Of a stretch of 49,277 nt of DNA, positions 1 to 49,277 are shown piece after piece. Below the pieces are notes generated by a model. The model had not been told where the DNA came from and ran no database searches. It worked only from the letters and a program-made list of their open reading frames with translations. Each line of letters opens with the position of its first letter. Within the stretch, counting starts at the first letter, position 1. Source of the stretch: a virus (Duplodnaviria > Heunggongvirae > Uroviricota > Caudoviricetes); IMG/VR virus record IMGVR_UViG_2534682330_000007, one strand, 5' to 3'. Position numbers and translations under genes: made by a program.

Positions 1-1284
1 TTACTTCTTCGCCTCTGCAACCACTTTACTACCCACGCCGCGGTTATTGTATTCCCACATGCGGTTGTAGTTAGTGTCATTCAGATTGCGCTGTATTTCG
101 TCGTTATCATCTACGCTGCCGGTATTACCCGCAAACGGACGATTAGAGATCACCGCATCGGCCCACGGTTTAGCCATGTTAAAACCTTCGTTGATGGCGC
201 TATCACGGATCACCACCTGACCGTTGGTATTGGCATCAACATCCAGCGAGCGGCCCAGTTGCGCCACACCATCACCGAAAGCATTGAAACGGCTGTTTAC
301 GGCGAGGAAACCGTAGTAAATGTTGGACAGCGTAGCCGGTGCAAACACATACGCTTCTTGCTGAGTACGTGAGTTCACCACGCGGAATTCGGTGTTATCG
401 AACACCACTGCGCCGCGACCAGAAACGATATCCACATCCCCTTCAATGTAGCTGTTGGTCACCAGCGTACGCGGCTGACGATTCGTTTCCAGACGGTTCT
501 GCACACCGCTGTTGGTGACAAAGAAGGTGTTCTGACGACCGAGAATGTTAACGTTGTTAATCTGTACCTGGTCACCATCAGTACGCAGTGCCACCGCCGG
601 ATGGTTACCTGCATCTACGCTATCGCCCAGCGTGTTTTCGATGGTCAGATTTTGCAGTTGCAGGCCATTGTTTTGTGACCAGAAGACCGCAGAGCAGAGA
701 ACACCGATACTGTCGCTGCGTTTGCTCTGGCAGCTATCGTACATATACCACGCTGGTTTACCTGGCATATATTTGCCGCGCGGGTTGACGTCGTGACGCC
801 AGTCGGCAGGGCTCATGCCACCATCAAGGGAAAGCCCAATCTTCACATCAATCGGTTTTTCACCTGTACCGTACAGAGTAATTCCACCCGGAGCGGCAGG
901 GACATATCCCGTTCCCTGATACTCACCAGGCATCACGGCAATATACTGGCGCTTGTTGGTACGCTTGATAATTGCCGCATCTACCGCCGCCTGAATCGTG
1001 GTATGCGTTACACCTTGAGTGCCCGCCGGGCCGACAACAAAGTCAGGTTGCGCAGGCAGGGTAATCGGGGAAGGATTCCACGCTGCAGCACCTGGTGTCA
1101 GGGATGCAAAATAGTGTTGAGCATCGAAATTCTGCGCTTCTTTTGCCGACAGAATCGGGCGAGAAGAGGTACCAGGCGCGGTTTGATCAGAAGGACGTTG
1201 ATCGGGCGGGGTTGAGCTACAGGCGGTCAGCGTCACGCCAAAAGCCAATGCCAGCGCCAGACGGGAAACTGAAAATGTGTTCAC
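1..1284 (-). CDS. ybhC: Host outer-membrane lipoprotein YbhC (pectinesterase-family), complete 427 aa
   Basis: ORF track 427 aa with N-terminal lipoprotein signal (LTACSS); recalled match to E. coli YbhC, which flanks attB of lambda. Confidence 0.85.
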   Translation of the reverse strand: MNTFSVSRLALALAFGVTLTACSSTPPDQRPSDQTAPGTSSRPILSAKEAQNFDAQHYFASLTPGAAAWNPSPITLPAQPDFVVGPAGTQGVTHTTIQAAVDAAIIKRTNKRQYIAVMPGEYQGTGYVPAAPGGITLYGTGEKPIDVKIGLSLDGGMSPADWRHDVNPRGKYMPGKPAWYMYDSCQSKRSDSIGVLCSAVFWSQNNGLQLQNLTIENTLGDSVDAGNHPAVALRTDGDQVQINNVNILGRQNTFFVTNSGVQNRLETNRQPRTLVTNSYIEGDVDIVSGRGAVVFDNTEFRVVNSRTQQEAYVFAPATLSNIYYGFLAVNSRFNAFGDGVAQLGRSLDVDANTNGQVVIRDSAINEGFNMAKPWADAVISNRPFAGNTGSVDDNDEIQRNLNDTNYNRMWEYNNRGVGSKVVAEAKK

Positions 1285-1330: not shown

Positions 1331-1430
1331 GCTTTTTTATACTAAGTTGGCATTATAAAAAAGCATTGCTTATCAATTTGTTGCAACGAACAGGTCACTA
1401 TCAGTCAAAATAAAATCATTATTTGATTTC
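1331..1430. other. attL: lambda att core GCTTTTTTATACTAA (1331-1345) followed by P' arm with Int arm-type sites
   Basis: Exact 15-bp lambda core, then GTTGGCATTATAAAAAAGCATTGCTTATCAATTTGTTGCAACGAACAGGTCACTATCAGTCAAAATAAAATCATTATTTG as recalled for lambda attP right arm; int lies immediately adjacent. Confidence 0.9.
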
Positions 1431-2489
1431 AATTTTGTCCCACTCCCTGCCTCTGTCATCACGATACTGTGATGCCATGGTGTCCGACTTATGCCCGAGA
1501 AGATGTTGAGCAAACTTATCGCTTATCTGCTTCTCATAGAGTCTTGCAGACAAACTGCGCAACTCGTGAAAGGTAGGCGGATCCCCTTCGAAGGAAAGAC
1601 CTGATGCTTTTCGTGCGCGCATAAAATACCTTGATACTGTGCCGGATGAAAGCGGTTCGCGACGAGTAGATGCAATTATGGTTTCTCCGCCAAGAATCTC
1701 TTTGCATTTATCAAGTGTTTCCTTCATTGATATTCCGAGAGCATCAACATGCAATACTGTTGGGATGGCAATTTTTACGCCTGTTTTGCTTTGCTCGACA
1801 TAAAGATATCCATCTACGATATCAGACCACTTCATTTCGCATAAATCACCAACTCGTTGCCCGGTAACAACAGCCAGTTCCATTGCAAGTCTGAGCCAAC
1901 ATGGTGATGATTCTGCTGCTTGATAAATTTTCAGGTATTCGTCAGCCGTAAGTCTTGATCTCCTTACCTCTGATTTTGCTGCGCGAGTGGCAGCGACAGG
2001 GTTTGTTGTTATATGGCCTTCAGCTATTGCCTCTCGGAATGCATCGCTCAGTGTTGATCTGATTAACTTGGCTGACGCCGCCTTGCCCTCGTCTATGTAT
2101 CCATTGAGCATTGCCGCAATTTCTTTTGTGGTGATGTCTTCAAGTGGAGCATCAGGCAGACCCCTCCTTATTGCTTTAATTTTGCTCATGTAATTTATGA
2201 GTGTCTTCTGCTTGATTCCTCTGCTGGCCAGGATTTTTTCGTAGCGATCAAGCCATGAATGTAACGTAACGGAATTATCACTGTTGATTCTCGCTGTCAG
2301 AGGCTTGTGTTTGTGTCCTGAAAATAACTCAATGTTGGCCTGTATAGCTTCAGTGATTGCGATTCGCCTGTCTCTGCCTAATCCAAACTCTTTACCCGTC
2401 CTTGGGTCCCTGTAGCAGTAATATCCATTGTTTCTTATATAAAGGTTAGGGGGTAAATCCCGGCGCTCATGACTTCGCCTTCTTCCCAT
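1419..2489 (-). CDS. int: Integrase (tyrosine recombinase), lambda Int
   Basis: 356 aa, begins MGRRRSHERRDLPPNLYIRNNGYYCYRDPRTGKEFGLGRD as in lambda Int; adjacent to att P' arm. Confidence 0.97.
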   Translation of the reverse strand: MGRRRSHERRDLPPNLYIRNNGYYCYRDPRTGKEFGLGRDRRIAITEAIQANIELFSGHKHKPLTARINSDNSVTLHSWLDRYEKILASRGIKQKTLINYMSKIKAIRRGLPDAPLEDITTKEIAAMLNGYIDEGKAASAKLIRSTLSDAFREAIAEGHITTNPVAATRAAKSEVRRSRLTADEYLKIYQAAESSPCWLRLAMELAVVTGQRVGDLCEMKWSDIVDGYLYVEQSKTGVKIAIPTVLHVDALGISMKETLDKCKEILGGETIIASTRREPLSSGTVSRYFMRARKASGLSFEGDPPTFHELRSLSARLYEKQISDKFAQHLLGHKSDTMASQYRDDRGREWDKIEIK

Positions 2490-17374: not shown

Positions 17375-18472
17375 TTAGAACTGGTAAACCAGACCTACAG
17401 CAACGATGTCATCAGTGCTTACACCGAGTGCTTTAGTGAAGTCATTTTTGTCAAGCAGGTTGATTTTGTAATCAACGAAAGTAGACATATTTTTGTTGAA
17501 GTAATAGGTTGCACCTACATCAACATATTTGACTAAGTCCTGATCGCCCCATACTCCAAGATCCTTACCTTTAGATTGCAGGTAAGCAACGGACGGACGC
17601 AGACCGAAATCGAACTGATATTGTGCAACAGCTTCGAAGTTTTGGGCTTTATTAGCAACGAAGTGATCAGCAAATACAGTCATATTCTGGGTTTCAGAAT
17701 AGGTAGTGGCCAGGTAAATGTTGTTAGCGTCATATTTCAGACCTGCGGCCCAAACTTCTGCATTTTTACCGGAAGCAAATACTTCAGGAAGAACTTTCCC
17801 TGCATTAACTTGAGTGTCGGTACGATCAGATTTTGCATAAGTTGCACCGATACCGAATCCTTCGTATTCATAGGTAGCAGAGAAACCGAAGCCATCACCG
17901 TTACCTTCGGTGTAGTTATCGAAATCGCTACGATCGTTTTTGCCTTGGTACTGAGCAGCAAAGTTCAGACCATCAACCAGGCCAAAGAAGTCGTTGTTAC
18001 GATAGGTTGCAACACCAGTGGTGCGACCAGTCATGAACACATCTGTTTGGGTCCAGGTATCGCCACCGAATTCTGGCAGAACGTCAGTCCACGCACCGAT
18101 GTCGTATGCTCCACCGTAGTTACGGCCGTAATCGATTGAGCCGTAGTCACCGAATTTCAGGCCTGCAAATGCAAGACGGGTTTTGTCTTTGGAGGAACCT
18201 TGAGATTCAGCGCGGTTGCCTTTGAATTCATATTCCCACTGACCGAAACCAGTCAGTTGATCGTTGATTTGGGTTTCACCTTTGAAGCCAAGACGGGCAT
18301 AAGTAGTATCACCATCATCTGCATCATTAGAGGAGAAGTAGTGCTTAGCATTAACTTTCCCGTACAGATCCAGCTTGTTACTGTCTTTATTATAAATTTC
18401 AGCTGCCTGAGCAGACATCGCCATCAGTACTGATGCAGCTACAGCAGAAATTGCCACTGTTAATTTTTTCAT
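17375..18472 (-). CDS. nmpC: Outer-membrane porin of the OmpC/OmpF family (phage Lc / NmpC type), intact 365 aa
   Basis: Signal peptide [23 protein letters not shown], porin beta-barrel signature with C-terminal ...VAVGLVYQF; same position and orientation as nmpC in DLP12 and lc in phage PA-2. Confidence 0.92.
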
Positions 18473-42943: not shown

Positions 42944-45900
42944 ATGGCAGTAAAGATTTCAGGTGTACTGAAAGACGGCACAGGAAAACCGGTACAGAAC
43001 TGCACAATCCAGCTGAAAGCAAAACGTAACAGCACCACGGTGGTGGTGAACACGCTGGCCTCAGAAAATCCGGATGAAGCCGGGCGTTACAGCATGGACG
43101 TTGAGTACGGTCAGTACAGCGTTATTCTGTTGGTGGAAGGATTCCCGCCGTCACATGCCGGGACCATCACCGTGTATGAAGATTCCCGACCCGGTACGCT
43201 GAATGATTTTCTCGGTGCCATGACGGAGGATGATGCCCGTCCTGAGGCACTGCGCCGTTTTGAACTGATGGTGGAAGAGGTGGCGCGTAACGCGTCCGCG
43301 GTGGCACAGAACACGGCAGCCGCGAAGAAGTCAGCCAGCGATGCCGGCACATCAGCCCGTGAGGCGGCAACCCATGCGACTGATGCTGCAGGCTCAGCAC
43401 GCGCAGCCAGCACGTCAGCCGGACAGGCTGCTTCGTCGGCTCAGTCAGCGTCTTCCAGCGCAGGAACGGCATCAACAAAGGCCACTGAAGCATTAAAAAG
43501 TGCTGCCGCTGCAGAGTCCTCAAAAAGCGCGGCGGCTACCAGTGCCGGTGCGGCGAAAACGTCAGAAACGAATGCGGCAGCGTCACAACAATCAGCAGCC
43601 ACTTCTGCATCCACCGCGACTACGAAAGCGTCAGAAGCAGCCACTTCAGCACGGGATGCGTCGGCTTCAAAAGAGGCGGCAAAATCATCAGAAACGAACG
43701 CAGCCTCGAGCGCCAGCAGCGCAGCTTCCTCGGCAACGGCGGCAGCAAATTCTGCGAAGGCGGCAAAAACGTCTGAGACAAACGCCAGGTCTTCTGAAAC
43801 GGCAGCGGAACAGAGTGCCTCAGCTGCGGCAGGCTCAAAAACAGCGGCTGCGTCGTCTGCCAGTGCAGCGTCAACAAGTGCCGGGCAGGCCTCAGCCAGT
43901 GCCACCGCCGCCGGAAAATCGGCAGAAAGCGCCGCATCGTCTGCTTCAACAGCCACAACGAAGGCTGGCGAAGCCACTGAACAGGCCAGCGCAGCAGCGA
44001 GGTCTGCTTCCGCAGCGAAGACATCCGAAACGAACGCGAAAGCGTCGGAAACCAGCGCAGAATCCTCAAAAACGGCTGCCGCATCGTCCGCCAGTTCGGC
44101 GGCGTCATCGGCATCATCTGCGTCTGCTTCAAAAGATGAGGCGACCAGACAAGCGTCAGCAGCGAAGAGCAGCGCCACGACGGCATCCACGAAGGCAACA
44201 GAGGCGGCAGGCAGTGCGACGGCAGCATCTCAGAGCAAAACTACTGCTGAATCCGCTGCGACCCGTGCGGAAGCTGCTGCTGATCGTGCTGAAGAGATTG
44301 CCGGTGCAGTTGCGATGGAAGACGCAAGCCTTACAACTAAAGGTGTTGTGAAACTTAGCAGTGCTGTTGATAGCACCAGTGAATCGCTGGCCGCAACGCC
44401 AAAAGCAGTTAAAGCAGCCAATGACAATGCGAATAGCAGGGTGCCATCTAACCGAAAAGTTAACGGAAAAGCACTGACTGCGGATATAACATTAACGCCG
44501 AAAGATATTGGTACTTTAAATTCAGTAACGATGTCTTTCTCTGGCGGGGCTGGGGGGTTCAAACTGGCTACGGTTACCATGCCACAAGCGAGTTCCATCG
44601 TTTACATCGCATTGATTGGTGGCGCTGGTTACAACGTCGGTTCCCCACATCAGGCAGGCATTTCAGAACTGGTTCTACGAGCAGGCAATGGAAACCCCAA
44701 AGGAATTACCGGGGCTTTGTGGAAGCGTACAGCCGTCGGATTAACGAATTTCGCCTGGATCAACACATCCGGCGATACATATGATATTTACGTTGAGATT
44801 GGCAATTATGCGACGAGTGTAAATATCCATTGGGATTGTACTGCAAATGCGTCAGTTTCTGTTTATACCTCGCCAACATATTCAGCGAGTAAGCCTTCCA
44901 GCGTTACCTATGGTGTTGTTTATACGATGTATAGCTCACATCAGAAACCTACACCATCAGATATTGGAGCACTGCCAACAACCGGAGGAACAGTTTCAGG
45001 TCCGTTGTCTGTTACAGGTGGATTAACTGGTTCATTGAATGGTAATGCAAGTACAGCCACGAAATTGCAGACGGCAAGATCTATCGGTGGAGTTGTTTTC
45101 GACGGTTCTGCAAATATTAACCTTCCAGGTGTAAACACTACGGGTAATCAGAACACCACTGGTAATGCTGCAACTGCTACAAAACTTCAGACTGCAAGAA
45201 AAATATCCGGTGTTCCATTTGATGGTTCTACTGATATCACTTTAACCGCCGCGCATGTGGCTGCTTTTGCCAGAAGGGCAACGGATACATATGCCGATGC
45301 GGATGGTGGCGTTCCCTGGAATGCCGAATCAGGCGCTTACAATGTCACCCGCTCTGGCTACACCTATATTCTGGTTAACTTCTATACCGGAGTCGGAAGT
45401 TGCCGGACCCTGCAGATGAAGGCGCATTACAGAAATGGAGGTCTGTTCTACCGTTCCTCAAGAGATGGCTATGGTTTTGAGGAAGGCTGGGCAGAAGTTT
45501 ATACCTCGAAAAATCTTCCACCAGAAAGCTACCCAGTTGGCGCACCAATCCCGTGGCCATCAGATACCGTTCCGTCTGGTTATGCCCTGATGCAGGGGCA
45601 GACTTTTGACAAATCTGCTTACCCGAAACTTGCAGCGGCTTATCCGTCAGGCGTGATCCCTGATATGCGTGGCTGGACGATTAAGGGCAAGCCCGCCAGT
45701 GGTCGTGCCGTATTGTCTCAGGAACAGGATGGCATTAAATCGCATACCCACAGCGCCAGCGCATCCAGTACGGATTTGGGGACGAAAACCACATCGTCGT
45801 TTGATTACGGCACTAAATCCACGAATAACACCGGGGCGCATACCCATAGTATTAGCGGGACCGCAAATAGTGCCGGTGCGCACCAACACAAGAGTTCCGG

Positions 45901-46222
45901 TGCATTTGGTGGCACGAACACGAGCATTTTCCCTAATGGTTATACCGCGATTTCAAATCCAAGCGCGGGGATTATGAGCACAACAAGCGGTAGTGGCCAG
46001 ACTCGTAATGCAGGGAAGACATCATCAGATGGTGCTCATACCCACTCGCTGTCCGGCACAGCAGCATCTGCAGGTGCACATGCACATACTGTCGGTATTG
46101 GTGCGCATACGCACTCGGTTGCGATTGGTTCACATGGACACACCATCACCGTTAACGCTGCTGGTAACGCGGAAAACACCGTCAAAAACATCGCATTTAA
46201 CTATATTGTGAGGCTTGCATAA
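42944..46222 (+). CDS. stf: Side tail fibre protein Stf (long form with expanded Ala/Ser-rich repeat region)
   Basis: ATG 42944 gives [69 protein letters not shown] (lambda Stf N-terminus); C-terminal His-x-His repeats (GAHTHS, GAHAHT) typical of Stf/gp37-type fibres. Confidence 0.9.
43290..44270 (+). repeat. Low-complexity coding repeats in stf (reiterated motif around AKTSETNA in an Ala/Ser-rich tract)
   Basis: Motif KTSETNA or SSETNA occurs at least four times in the protein; the DNA is GC-rich and repetitive, which generates many spurious overlapping ORFs in other frames. Confidence 0.8.
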
Positions 46223-46803
46223 TGGCATTCAGAATGAGTGAACAACCACGGACCATAAAAATTTATAATCTGCTGTCCGGAACTAATGAATTTATTGGTG
46301 AAGGTGATGCATATATTCCGCCTCATACAGGTCTGCCAGCAAACAGTACCGACATTGCACCGCCAGATATTCCAGCTGGCTTCGTGGCTGTTTTCAACAG
46401 TGATGAGTCATCGTGGCATCTCGTTGAAGATCATCGGGGTAAAACGGTTTATGACGTGGCTTCCGGCGACGCGTTATTTATTTCTGAACTCGGCTCATTA
46501 CCGGAAAATGTCACCTGGTTATCCCCGGAAGGGGAGTTTCAGAAGTGGAACGGCACAGCCTGGGTGAAAGATGCAGAAGCAGAAAAACTATTCCGGATCC
46601 GGGAGGCGGAAGAAACAAAAAACAGCCTGATGCAGGCAGCGAATGAGCATATTGCGCCACTTCAGGATGCTGTAGATCTGGAGATCGCAACGGAGGAAGA
46701 AACTTCGTTGCTGGAAGTCTGGAAAAAGTATCGGGTGTTGCTGAACCGTGTTAATACAACAACTGCTCCGGATATTGAATGGCCAGTAGCACCTATAGGG
46801 TAA
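46222..46803 (+). CDS. tfa: Tail fibre assembly protein Tfa
   Basis: 193 aa [78 protein letters not shown]; start overlaps the stf stop. Confidence 0.9.
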
Positions 46804-46886
46804 ATTCGTAATGATTACCTAAATACGTTATTCTTTTGTTCAAAAAGTGATTTTGCTATAGGTAGGGAGTATGTTCTTGGATTAAG

Positions 46887-46920
46887 AATAAAAAATCGCC
46901 ATGAAAGAGCTTCATGGCGA
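46887..46920 (-). terminator. Minus-strand intrinsic terminator (TCGCCATGAA-AGAGC-TTCATGGCGA then U-run) with no annotated gene upstream
   Basis: Perfect 10-bp stem; the T-run (plus-strand AATAAAAAA) lies on the minus-strand 3' side, so it terminates leftward transcription from the AT-rich right arm. Confidence 0.5.
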
Positions 46921-47662
46921 GTACATAAACGTACAAAATGTGATGAAAGTAGAGTGGCGTAAGCCACTATATTAAGATGTGACAATAGCGAACAAAAGTA
47001 AATAATATTTTATGGACGTTTAATTGTTAATTATAAAAACTAGAGTGCCCGATATTGTTTATCTTGCTTTAAAATAATGTACTCAAACCAAATTTTTGAG
47101 CTAAAAGCTCAAATAATATAAATGCAATGATAATGTTTAATAAGACAATTAGCTTGCTTTGTATTTTCATTTCGGAATACTGTTAAGTAACTTTGATGAC
47201 CCTAACAATAGATCGGAATTTTCTTAGAGTCAATGGTCACTGTTTTTGTTTGCAAAGCAAATGTTTTGGTGGTTATAAGTTGTCTTAATATAGTCACGCA
47301 TGCAACTTGCTCCATGCGGAGATTAAAGATTGGAATATAACGCGAAGATGGAATTAAATTACATTTGCAATAATCAATTTATTATTACTCAATAATTACC
47401 GATATTATTATTGTAAATTAATCATTAGAGTGCAAAAAGAAATGTAACGGCAAAATAAGAGGACGATAGCTGAGAAAAAAGCGTGCTTTCCCAATCTGGG
47501 GCAAATCACGTCTGAATGACACCTGAAAACAGGTAGTAGCCTCAAGAAGGCTTGGAATATTCTTCTTTAATGTTATGTAATTCATTGATTTTTCGTGTAC
47601 GATTTTAAGACATTTATTCCAAGAAAAATTTTTAACTCTTTGATTTTTCGACTCTGTATCAT

Positions 47663-47724
47663 CGGTCTCGAAAACCGGAGTAGGGGCAACTCTACCGGGG
47701 GTTCAAATCCCCCTCTCTCCGCCA
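47663..47724 (+). tRNA. Partial tRNA: 3' two-thirds of a class II tRNA-Ser(CGA)-like gene (anticodon arm, long variable arm, T arm, acceptor 3' strand, CCA); 5' part absent
   Basis: GGTCTCGAAAACC anticodon stem-loop with CGA anticodon, long variable arm, GGGGGTTCAAATCCCCC T arm, TCTCTCCGCCA 3' end; no matching 5' acceptor strand or D arm upstream. Confidence 0.7.
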
Positions 47725-48306
47725 CTTTATCAATGACTTATCTCCCGACTTCCCGCCTTGCTTTTCCTAAACAGAACAATCGTAGAATATTCTTGAAGGG
47801 TTAGATCGTCACTGTTTTCTGTTCGATACTGTGACATTCAGCACTTGATTCGCTATGGATCTGACAGGAAGGTTTTGAGCGAAAATTTGCAGTTATTCAG
47901 TCGTTTTCTTATCGGTCACCATTATTCTTTTAGACATTGATCCTACAAAGCTGCCGCAAAGTTGGTGGTAGGAACTGAAGTTGCGTAGAGAAGGGGTCAA
48001 TACCCGGAGGCAAACATGGGCTGGCAAAAGTGTAGCGGTATTAGGCGCAGCTATTTAGCCTAGTTATGTTTTATGAAAACTTGATATCATATAAGTGTCT
48101 TACTTATTGGCTGTAAATAAGTTTTTCCTAAGGAATTGTTTCTTGAGTATCATTTGTAACTGTAACGGAATTTATAATCCTTTGCTTTATTGTTACGGTA
48201 TTTTTTATCACACCCTATTTTTAGTGGTTTTTTATACTGAAGTTTGGCAAAGTGAACTTTATATACATATACTTCATCCTGGTTTCAGTTAAATTGGGTG
48301 GATGAT

Positions 48307-49050
48307 ATGGCAACTACATGTTCAGTTATATTGATTTTGGAGTCCTTTGATGTTTATTTCGGAAAAGAGAGTGTGTTTCTGGAGAGAGGTTCATCTGTAC
48401 TTGTCGACTCTAGCTCTAGAGATTTTTTCCTGACATATCCTGAAAGAGTGATAGTGGCGGATTTTGGCGCTGAGTTTATTAGTCGCTATTTGAAAGCTAA
48501 TAACTTAAGGGATATTTCTGATTGTAGGGAATATCCATCTTATTTAAAAATAAACTTTGCTGACTTCAGTTTAATTAAAGGATTAATTAGTTGGGCTAAT
48601 CACTGTGCTGAATACATAGAAATTTTTGATGAGTCTATTGCTTTTACATGTCTCTCTGCATTTTCTTCTGAAAAACAATTTGGAGTATTTCTGTTTGAAT
48701 GTTTGAAAAGCACAGGGGCTAAAGTTAAAACGATTATTCATACGGATTTATCTGCACCATGGCGTCTTAAGGATATATCATCAAGATTATATCTCAGCGA
48801 AAGTTTACTAAAGAGGAAATTGAAAGAAGAGGGGGTATCATTCAGTAAGATCATACTTGATGAGAGGATGCAAATGGCTGAATATTTACTCTGCACTCGT
48901 TGTTATCCTATTAGTAAAGTAGCTAAGGTCTGTGGTTATGCCAGTGTCTCATACTTTACTTATGTATTTAGACGTTATTTTGGTGTTTCTCCAAGTCAAT
49001 ACTCTCAGAGGAGTTCAGAAAGTAAAATTCTTACTCACCAGGGAATCTGA
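48307..49050 (+). CDS. AraC/XylS-family transcriptional regulator (prophage cargo; AppY/PatE-like position)
   Basis: ATG 48307; C-terminal tandem HTH region (ISKVAKVCGYASVSYFTYVFRRYFGVSPSQY) typical of AraC family; AT-rich gene downstream of the tail fibre genes. Confidence 0.8.
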   Translation: MATTCSVILILESFDVYFGKESVFLERGSSVLVDSSSRDFFLTYPERVIVADFGAEFISRYLKANNLRDISDCREYPSYLKINFADFSLIKGLISWANHCAEYIEIFDESIAFTCLSAFSSEKQFGVFLFECLKSTGAKVKTIIHTDLSAPWRLKDISSRLYLSESLLKRKLKEEGVSFSKIILDERMQMAEYLLCTRCYPISKVAKVCGYASVSYFTYVFRRYFGVSPSQYSQRSSESKILTHQGI

Positions 49051-49054
49051 TCAT

Positions 49055-49277
49055 TGTTCTTGCCCCCTTATTTCCAGACAGGGGGTGTATCTTAAGTTAA
49101 CGTTACCCGCTGACGTCGATATTCTCGCGGAGAGCGATAACCCAACGCACTGTGCGGATGGTTTTCATTGTAATGTTCGATCGCCACTGCAAGATTATGC
49201 AATGCCGTTCTTACATTCGGTTTCGGCATGAACGCGATGTAGTCTTCCTTCATCGTTTTCACGAACCTTTCTGCCAT
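49055..49277 (-). mobile_element. IS2-like (IS3 family) insertion sequence, end only; continues beyond the window
   Basis: Terminus reads (reverse complement) TGTCTGGAAATAAGGGGGCAAGAACA, resembling the IS2 right end as recalled; begins 5 bp after the AraC-family stop codon. Confidence 0.6.
49092..49277 (-). CDS. IS2-type transposase OrfB, C-terminal 61 codons only (truncated by window edge)
   Basis: [55 protein letters not shown], the C-terminal motif of IS3-family DDE transposases, closest in memory to IS2 InsD; the leading M in the track is an edge artefact. Confidence 0.7.

Follow-up and report, generated by a model that had tools for sequence, protein, structure and literature searches.

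An allele of the acid-resistance regulator gene patE as likely cargo of a lambda-like prophage, beside a truncated ISEc48-like element

The window, as we call the whole 49,277-nt stretch of viral DNA analysed here, begins with ybhC, a lambda att core and a lambda-type integrase gene, a combination that places the prophage at the classical lambda attachment site (Table 1). Its opposite end carries an AraC/XylS-family regulator gene, preceded by a fragment of a tRNA gene with adjoining chromosomal DNA and followed, after a very short spacer, by the end of an insertion sequence that runs off the window.

Table 1. Features at the two ends of the window, with the basis on which each was assigned
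Feature	Positions	Strand	Basis
ybhC	1-1284	-	annotation in near-identical genomes
lambda att core GCTTTTTTATACTAA, attL, between ybhC and integrase	1331-1345	+	pattern match
lambda-type integrase	1419-2489	-	annotation in near-identical genomes
AT-rich right arm (b-region) from a serU-type lambdoid phage	46804-47662	.	GC 0.28-0.34
tRNA-Ser(CGA) serU 3' fragment, anticodon stem to CCA; fossil attR core	47663-47725	+	identical to K-12 serU 3' part
core E. coli chromosome, serU-yodB spacer, 277 bp	47726-48002	+	K-12 alignment
region upstream of patE, conserved alongside the gene in all contexts	48003-48306	+	alignments
patE, AraC/XylS-family regulator, 247 aa	48307-49050, stop included	+	ORF, Pfam, O157:H7 match
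spacer TCAT, patE stop to IS end	49051-49054	.	direct reading; identical in all aligned contexts
truncated ISEc48-like IS3-family right end: terminal inverted repeat and orfB 3' end	49055-49277	-	rve_3, alignments

The regulator gene consists of 247 uninterrupted codons that start at an ATG and are closed by a TGA at 49048-49050. A GTG three codons upstream would yield an alternative product of 250 aa, but in genomes whose DNA is identical PGAP annotates the product of 247 aa. AraC/XylS-family regulators are recognised by a C-terminal DNA-binding domain of ~100 aa with two helix-turn-helix motifs. The window protein has this architecture, its C-terminal part matching the Pfam models HTH_AraC (E 1.1e-16, 60.9 bits against a cut-off of 26.6) and HTH_18 (E 1.5e-15, 57.7 bits against a cut-off of 33.6, residues 158-235), and a tblastn search of the window revealed no second AraC paralogue of the same subfamily. 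The first-pass annotation had described the gene as AT-rich, and its GC content is indeed 0.34-0.35; the tail-fibre genes that precede it have values of 0.46-0.62, and the prophage has ~50%. It had also considered that the gene might turn out to be a decayed pseudogene in a longer context. This reading is ruled out, the ORF being intact, of full length and free of frameshifts in comparison with all of its relatives.

The protein shares 245 of its 247 residues, without gaps, with WP_000246059.1 of E. coli O157:H7 TW14359, and the two genes are 99.7% identical at the nucleotide level. The window allele encodes E131 and C196 where the O157 allele encodes G131 and S196, the residue C196 falling within the DNA-binding half of the protein. 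WP_000246059.1 is also annotated in EDL933 (309,101-309,844), and its counterpart in Sakai is ECs_0287, a 'transcription regulator' at the same coordinates within the feature 'prophage Sp1, lambda-like phage'. The similarity extends well beyond the coding sequence, with 99.4% identity between window positions 47662-49277 and the O157 locus, and the exact window protein occurs on 198 contigs in public databases. A 2024 review identifies PatE with z0321 on O-island 8. We equate z0321 with the O157 counterpart of the window gene on the strength of its position and because patE is the sole AraC-family gene of the thrW-linked O157 prophage. Judged by full-length near-identity and a common genomic module, the window gene belongs to the PatE orthologue group. 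It represents an allele of patE, a gene whose original description comes from EHEC O157:H7 (z0321, OI-8/CP-933H; ECs_0287, Sp1 in Sakai). It is an already known and characterised regulator, and the finding is real but ordinary.

For the place of patE within the prophage we relied on related genomes. NCTC9008 is 98% identical to window positions 44000-49277 and displays the order J, lom, side tail fibre, tfa, patE, IS stub, second transposase fragment, att core and ybhB, with an attR (TTTTTTATACTAA) that lies ~1 kb past the patE stop and adjoins ybhB. The window ends 227 bp past patE, before attR, so that the assignment of patE to the inside of the prophage rests on such near-identical genomes. 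The gene is also present in three sequenced lambdoid phages, PhiR70_1, mEp332 and ev099, with 98.4-99.2% protein identity. The ev099 genome is arranged as tfa, patE, IS stub, att core, int and xis; in PhiR70_1 and mEp332, as in ev099, patE and the stub lie between tfa and attP/int. PhiR70_1 matches, in addition, most of the late and tail region of the window at 94-99% identity. Two marks of a cargo gene are thus found together, namely a location between the tail-fibre genes and attP/int in packaged phage genomes and a GC content of its own (34% against ~50%). By this genomic context, we consider patE to be non-essential cargo (a 'moron') that would ride in the b region, the lambda-like prophage being inserted at att-lambda between ybhC and ybhB, after the side tail fibre gene and tfa and before the expected attR. 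Since related phages lack patE, the gene is probably dispensable for the phage. The proposal of an AraC-family regulator as lambdoid prophage cargo, made in the first-pass annotation, is in this way borne out by the Pfam matches and, as to placement, by the att core, NCTC9008 and the three phages.

Elsewhere in the prophage, a 365-aa ORF (17375-18472, minus strand) lies between Q and the lysis genes, and this segment is 94% identical to a region of PhiR70_1 whose annotation reads outer-membrane porin OmpD. The prophage thus has another cargo gene of the lysogenic-conversion type besides patE.

The insertion-sequence terminus (TGTTCTTGCCCCCTTATTTCCAGACA...) starts at 49055, four bases past the patE stop, and aligns with the terminal inverted repeat of the IS2 group. 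Other independent ISEc48-type copies begin to align exactly at this position (position 206 of a query starting at 48850), which fixes the end of the element there and agrees with the earlier reading of a terminus starting 5 bp past the stop codon, whose last base is 49050. The element is oriented opposite to patE and 223 bp of it are visible before it runs off the window, positions 49092-49277 (minus strand) encoding the C-terminal end, 61 aa long, of a transposase from the IS3 family (Pfam rve_3, E 2.9e-13). It shows ~71% identity over 480 bp to the IS2 copies of K-12 and 96-97% nucleotide identity to copies annotated by PGAP as 'IS3-like element ISEc48 family'; in the curated Sakai record, the stub next to patE is entered as 'ISEc48 Family: IS3 partial'. 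The description of the element as IS2-like consequently holds at the level of the subgroup, whereas IS2 itself is excluded, ~71% standing against an isoform level of roughly 90% or more. What lies beside patE is, moreover, a truncated stub and not a whole IS. Its length is ~250 bp in UK_Dog_Liverpool, ~478 bp in O157 and ~505 bp in NCTC9008, and PGAP flags its transposase as 'missing N-terminus'. A functional IS is excluded, as the right 250-505 bp alone remain in all contexts and a stub without orfA and the left end cannot transpose. Going by the PGAP labels and the Sakai feature, we classify the element as a truncated ISEc48-like relic of the IS3 family, IS2 group. A comparable arrangement occurs on the enterohaemolysin plasmid NZ_CP124820.1, where an ISEc48 right end located downstream of ehxD (locus L005, 2360-2540) cuts short an ORF annotated as 'transcriptional regulator'; this IS end is thus met beside a regulator gene for a second time, in an unrelated setting.

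The 744-bp patE gene is present in 658 of 5426 complete E. coli genomes, those of O157:H7 among them, and its sequence is nearly invariant, with at least 99% nucleotide identity in 615 of the 660 matching records. The right junction is of the att-lambda type in 176 genomes and of one thrW type in 109. Scans of the GTDB species representatives outside E. coli, carried out with the protein and with the family alignment, did not find patE. The gene therefore occurs in ~12% of complete E. coli genomes, far beyond O157, and also in plaque-forming lambda-like phages. As for the thrW locus, what comes after the patE module varies: in some strains (locus L001, 14120-14190) it is a thrW-derived pseudo-tRNA (ptwF-like) and a yagP remnant, in O157 (locus L002, 15707 onward) another mobile element, the P4-like Sp2, so that mobile elements stand in tandem at thrW.

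These genomes also date the IS insertion relative to the spread of the gene. A 428-bp probe spanning the patE-IS junction detected it in 649 complete E. coli genomes, compared with 654 that contain at least 80% of patE. The junction, with its TCAT spacer, is found at two chromosomal sites (thrW and att-lambda) and in the three phage genomes. Its presence in nearly all patE genomes, at two loci and in phages, implies that the insertion predates the spread of the module. The position of the IS terminus just 4 nt past the patE stop had suggested a mark of recent rearrangement, and one that might truncate or destabilise the 3' end of patE. We regard this as highly improbable, in view of the distribution of the junction and of a coding sequence that is complete in comparison with all relatives; the recency of the insertion is already refuted. 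Instead, an inert ISEc48-like stub would have become fixed beside patE before the module spread, and would travel with the gene in viable phages. All in all, we assign a probability of roughly 90% to the reading that the locus holds an allele of patE as cargo of a prophage at att-lambda, beside an inert and fixed ISEc48-like stub.

The DNA on the left of patE points to an attachment site other than att-lambda. Positions 47663-48002 are 97% identical to K-12 2,043,529-2,043,190 and comprise the final 62 nt of serU and, from the spacer between serU and yodB, a further 277 bp, a sequence that exists in nearly all genomes. ARAGORN detected no complete tRNA at the serU fragment, and the search for RNA families returned just tRNA-like matches on this fragment and a partial, sub-threshold match to Rfam IS009 (59.7 bits against a gathering score of 117) at 46700-46763 (plus strand), in the 3' end of tfa. 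A chimeric probe that joined window positions 47000-48002 to the K-12 continuation into yodB was fully covered, with ~99% identity, in 82 genomes. In O177:H21, the locus of this kind runs from J through lom, stf, tfa, the AT-rich arm and the serU fragment to yodB. From these alignments, we identify the arm-serU fragment-yodB locus as a genuine attR, belonging to a lambdoid prophage that is integrated at serU and shares its right arm with the window. The AT-rich arm contains, in addition, a 33-aa hydrophobic ORF (MKIQSKLIVLLNIIIAFILFELLAQKFGLSTLF; 47069-47170, minus strand), unannotated in the related genomes inspected, whose similarity to the small stress-response membrane protein YncL is sub-threshold (NCBIfam E 1.3e-5; 25 bits, the cut-off being 35).

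A prophage at att-lambda that carries in its b region a serU attR with host DNA bears the mark to be expected of an imprecise (bio-type) excision and a later exchange of arms. The O157 module starts exactly at the serU fragment, with unrelated DNA to its left, and this edge fits recombination at the serU att site. The fossil attR and the 277 bp of chromosome, which form the left edge of the module, show that the phage arm at one time left the serU site by imprecise excision. patE may have been picked up in the same imprecise-excision event. That it was captured along with the serU host flank, as opposed to being joined later at the 48002/48003 breakpoint, is a tentative idea to which we give somewhat less than an even chance; intact serU followed by patE was found, using a chimeric query, in none of the 5426 genomes. 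The serU attR fossil is only a mildly new element, of value as a clean natural example of a phage acquiring host-side DNA beside its attachment site.

What patE does for its carriers can be anticipated from the O157 allele. According to the 2024 review, a patE mutant shows decreased expression of gadB, gadC, gadE and hdeAB (Bender et al. 2012). In the published work PatE is presented as an activator of gadE, gadBC and hdeAB that increases acid survival, its binding site is reported at -132 to -45 of the hdeA promoter, and LEE expression is lowered by PatE in LEE-positive strains. The expected action of the window allele follows by analogy with this O157 literature, as conveyed by reviews. Its C-terminal double helix-turn-helix would bind AT-rich DNA in promoters of the acid-fitness island (hdeA, gadE), gadE, gadBC and hdeAB would be transcribed more strongly, and the lysogen would survive acid better; in LEE-positive strains, LEE expression would decrease. 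Expression of patE would probably be highest in stationary phase. A gene for which automatic annotation says only 'AraC family transcriptional regulator' hence receives a name, and its likely phenotype is an increase in glutamate-dependent acid resistance and in the expression of hdeAB.

The region upstream of patE (48003-48306) is 99-100% identical among the thrW-type, att-lambda-type and phage copies, and an SD-like GGTGGA stands 4 nt ahead of the ATG. A sigma-70-like site, TTGGCA-18-TATACT, is located at 48244-48273 with a score of 10/12, and such sites are no more numerous in the region than in shuffled sequences; as a patE promoter it is a prediction no better than chance. Scanning for an intrinsic terminator after patE produced no convincing candidate, and the 8-bp hairpin in the IS terminal repeat is not more stable than shuffled sequences (z = 0.42). 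With a GC content of 34%, silencing of patE by H-NS is plausible. These observations feed the main rival to a functional role in the host, in which patE is silent here, an H-NS-silenced passenger without effect on the host that has been kept by hitch-hiking on a successful phage. The low GC in a 50% GC background, the promoter-like site that does not rise above chance and the terminator not found 3' of the gene all speak for it, as does the dependence of its prophage relative appY on H-NS and RpoS, known from the literature. Against it stands an ORF that is intact and nearly invariant (at least 99% nucleotide identity in 615 of 660 records). The module also persists while its flanks decay, the IS stub being cut at three different points, and the O157 allele has, according to the review, a mutant phenotype. 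We consider the silent-passenger explanation unlikely, though worth keeping in mind.

It might also be imagined that patE serves the phage, for instance as a regulator of further genes in the b region or of lysogenic-conversion genes, lom and the YncL-like ORF being examples. The gene is constantly linked to the same ~640 bp of upstream DNA and sits in the b region, beside other conversion-type genes. Yet in CP-933H of O157 the phage neighbours are entirely different and patE has been kept with the serU fragment and the IS stub only, and the PatE targets reported in the review are chromosomal acid-resistance genes, all of which makes a service to the phage quite improbable. There is also a wider hypothesis, which we advance with reservation and rate a little below even odds: patE could be a transducible acid-resistance switch instead of a peculiarity of EHEC, having entered lambdoid phages by bio-type excision at serU and then passed by arm exchange to phages of att-lambda and thrW. 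If this is true, viable phages like ev099, mEp332 and PhiR70_1 could, on lysogenising an E. coli of any kind, make it more tolerant of acid.

Among known acid-resistance regulators, BLASTP relates PatE over its full length to YdeO (34.7% identity), GadW (33.5%) and AppY (28.4%), and to GadX over the C-terminal 160 aa only (35%). PatE scores 148 bits with the NCBIfam equivalog model of YdeO, which has a cut-off of 348, and 112 bits with that of GadX, which has a cut-off of 500. Its best solved relative is the DNA-binding domain of GadX (3mkl, E 1.9e-24), with CsvR, Rns and ToxT coming next. An N-terminal CSV(I/V) motif common to PatE, YdeO, GadW and AppY, together with the full-length similarity, could make patE appear as a phage-borne duplicate, an orthologue of the core AppY, YdeO, GadW or GadX. 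Against this, identity to the core regulators is just 28-35% and both equivalog scores fall far under their cut-offs, so that we hold such orthology to be extremely improbable. In terms of sequence similarity it is refuted, a distant paralogue relationship remains, and PatE is a distinct member of the GadX/YdeO/AppY subfamily and the orthologue of no core regulator. The first-pass annotation had thus named the right group of acid-resistance regulators: of the proteins that it proposed for comparison, PatE is the gene itself (245/247 aa), whereas AppY (28.4%) and GadX (35%, C-terminal) fail as orthologues.

YdeO, GadW and GadX, at 33-35% identity, belong to the same subfamily as PatE and are chromosomal regulators of GAD acid resistance. 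PsrA and PsrB (OI-50/OI-57 of O157:H7) are, like PatE, prophage-borne AraC/XylS regulators of gadE and hdeA, a comparison drawn from their description in reviews, which have PsrA, PsrB and PatE bind the same segment of the hdeA promoter. Two 50-kb stretches of TW14359, chosen by a guess at the location of OI-50, contained no AraC gene. In other lambdoid phages, a family of 243-aa AraC-type paralogues, 52% identical to PatE, is encoded between the Q antiterminator gene and the holin gene (locus L011, 6001-6732; phages Lambda_ev203, 1H12 and others) and occurs in ~700 complete E. coli genomes. The Q-holin interval is the position of stx in Stx phages. This paralogue family is possibly of the Psr type.

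AppY, from the cryptic prophage DLP12 of K-12 and tied to acid resistance in the literature, offers a parallel in position that the first-pass annotation had already drawn and that stands: it is likewise an AraC/XylS regulator located at the right end of its prophage, after a tail-fibre assembly gene and before attR. The appY gene comes after tfaD/tfaX, and tfa of the window is 94% identical to tfaD of DLP12. AppY differs from PatE by its 28.4% protein identity and by an attachment site at argU. PatE in O157 (CP-933H/Sp1) shares with the window the ~640 bp upstream of the gene, beginning at the serU fragment, as well as the 4-nt spacer and the ISEc48 stub. The O157 gene, in contrast, resides in a decayed prophage at thrW, and that of the window in a full-length lambda-like prophage at ybhC/ybhB.

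The bio-type transducing phages of lambda resemble the window in retaining within the phage genome a right arm, an attR core and adjoining host DNA. The window phage departs from them in that it now has a lambda-type integrase and att, and its proven host DNA amounts to just 277 bp, a host origin of patE being only a tentative extension of this. Lastly, the terminal repeat of the stub (TG...TTGCCCC..TATTTCCAGACA) resembles the end of IS2, from which the stub differs in showing ~71% identity, and of ISEc48 it keeps only the right-hand 223 bp or more.
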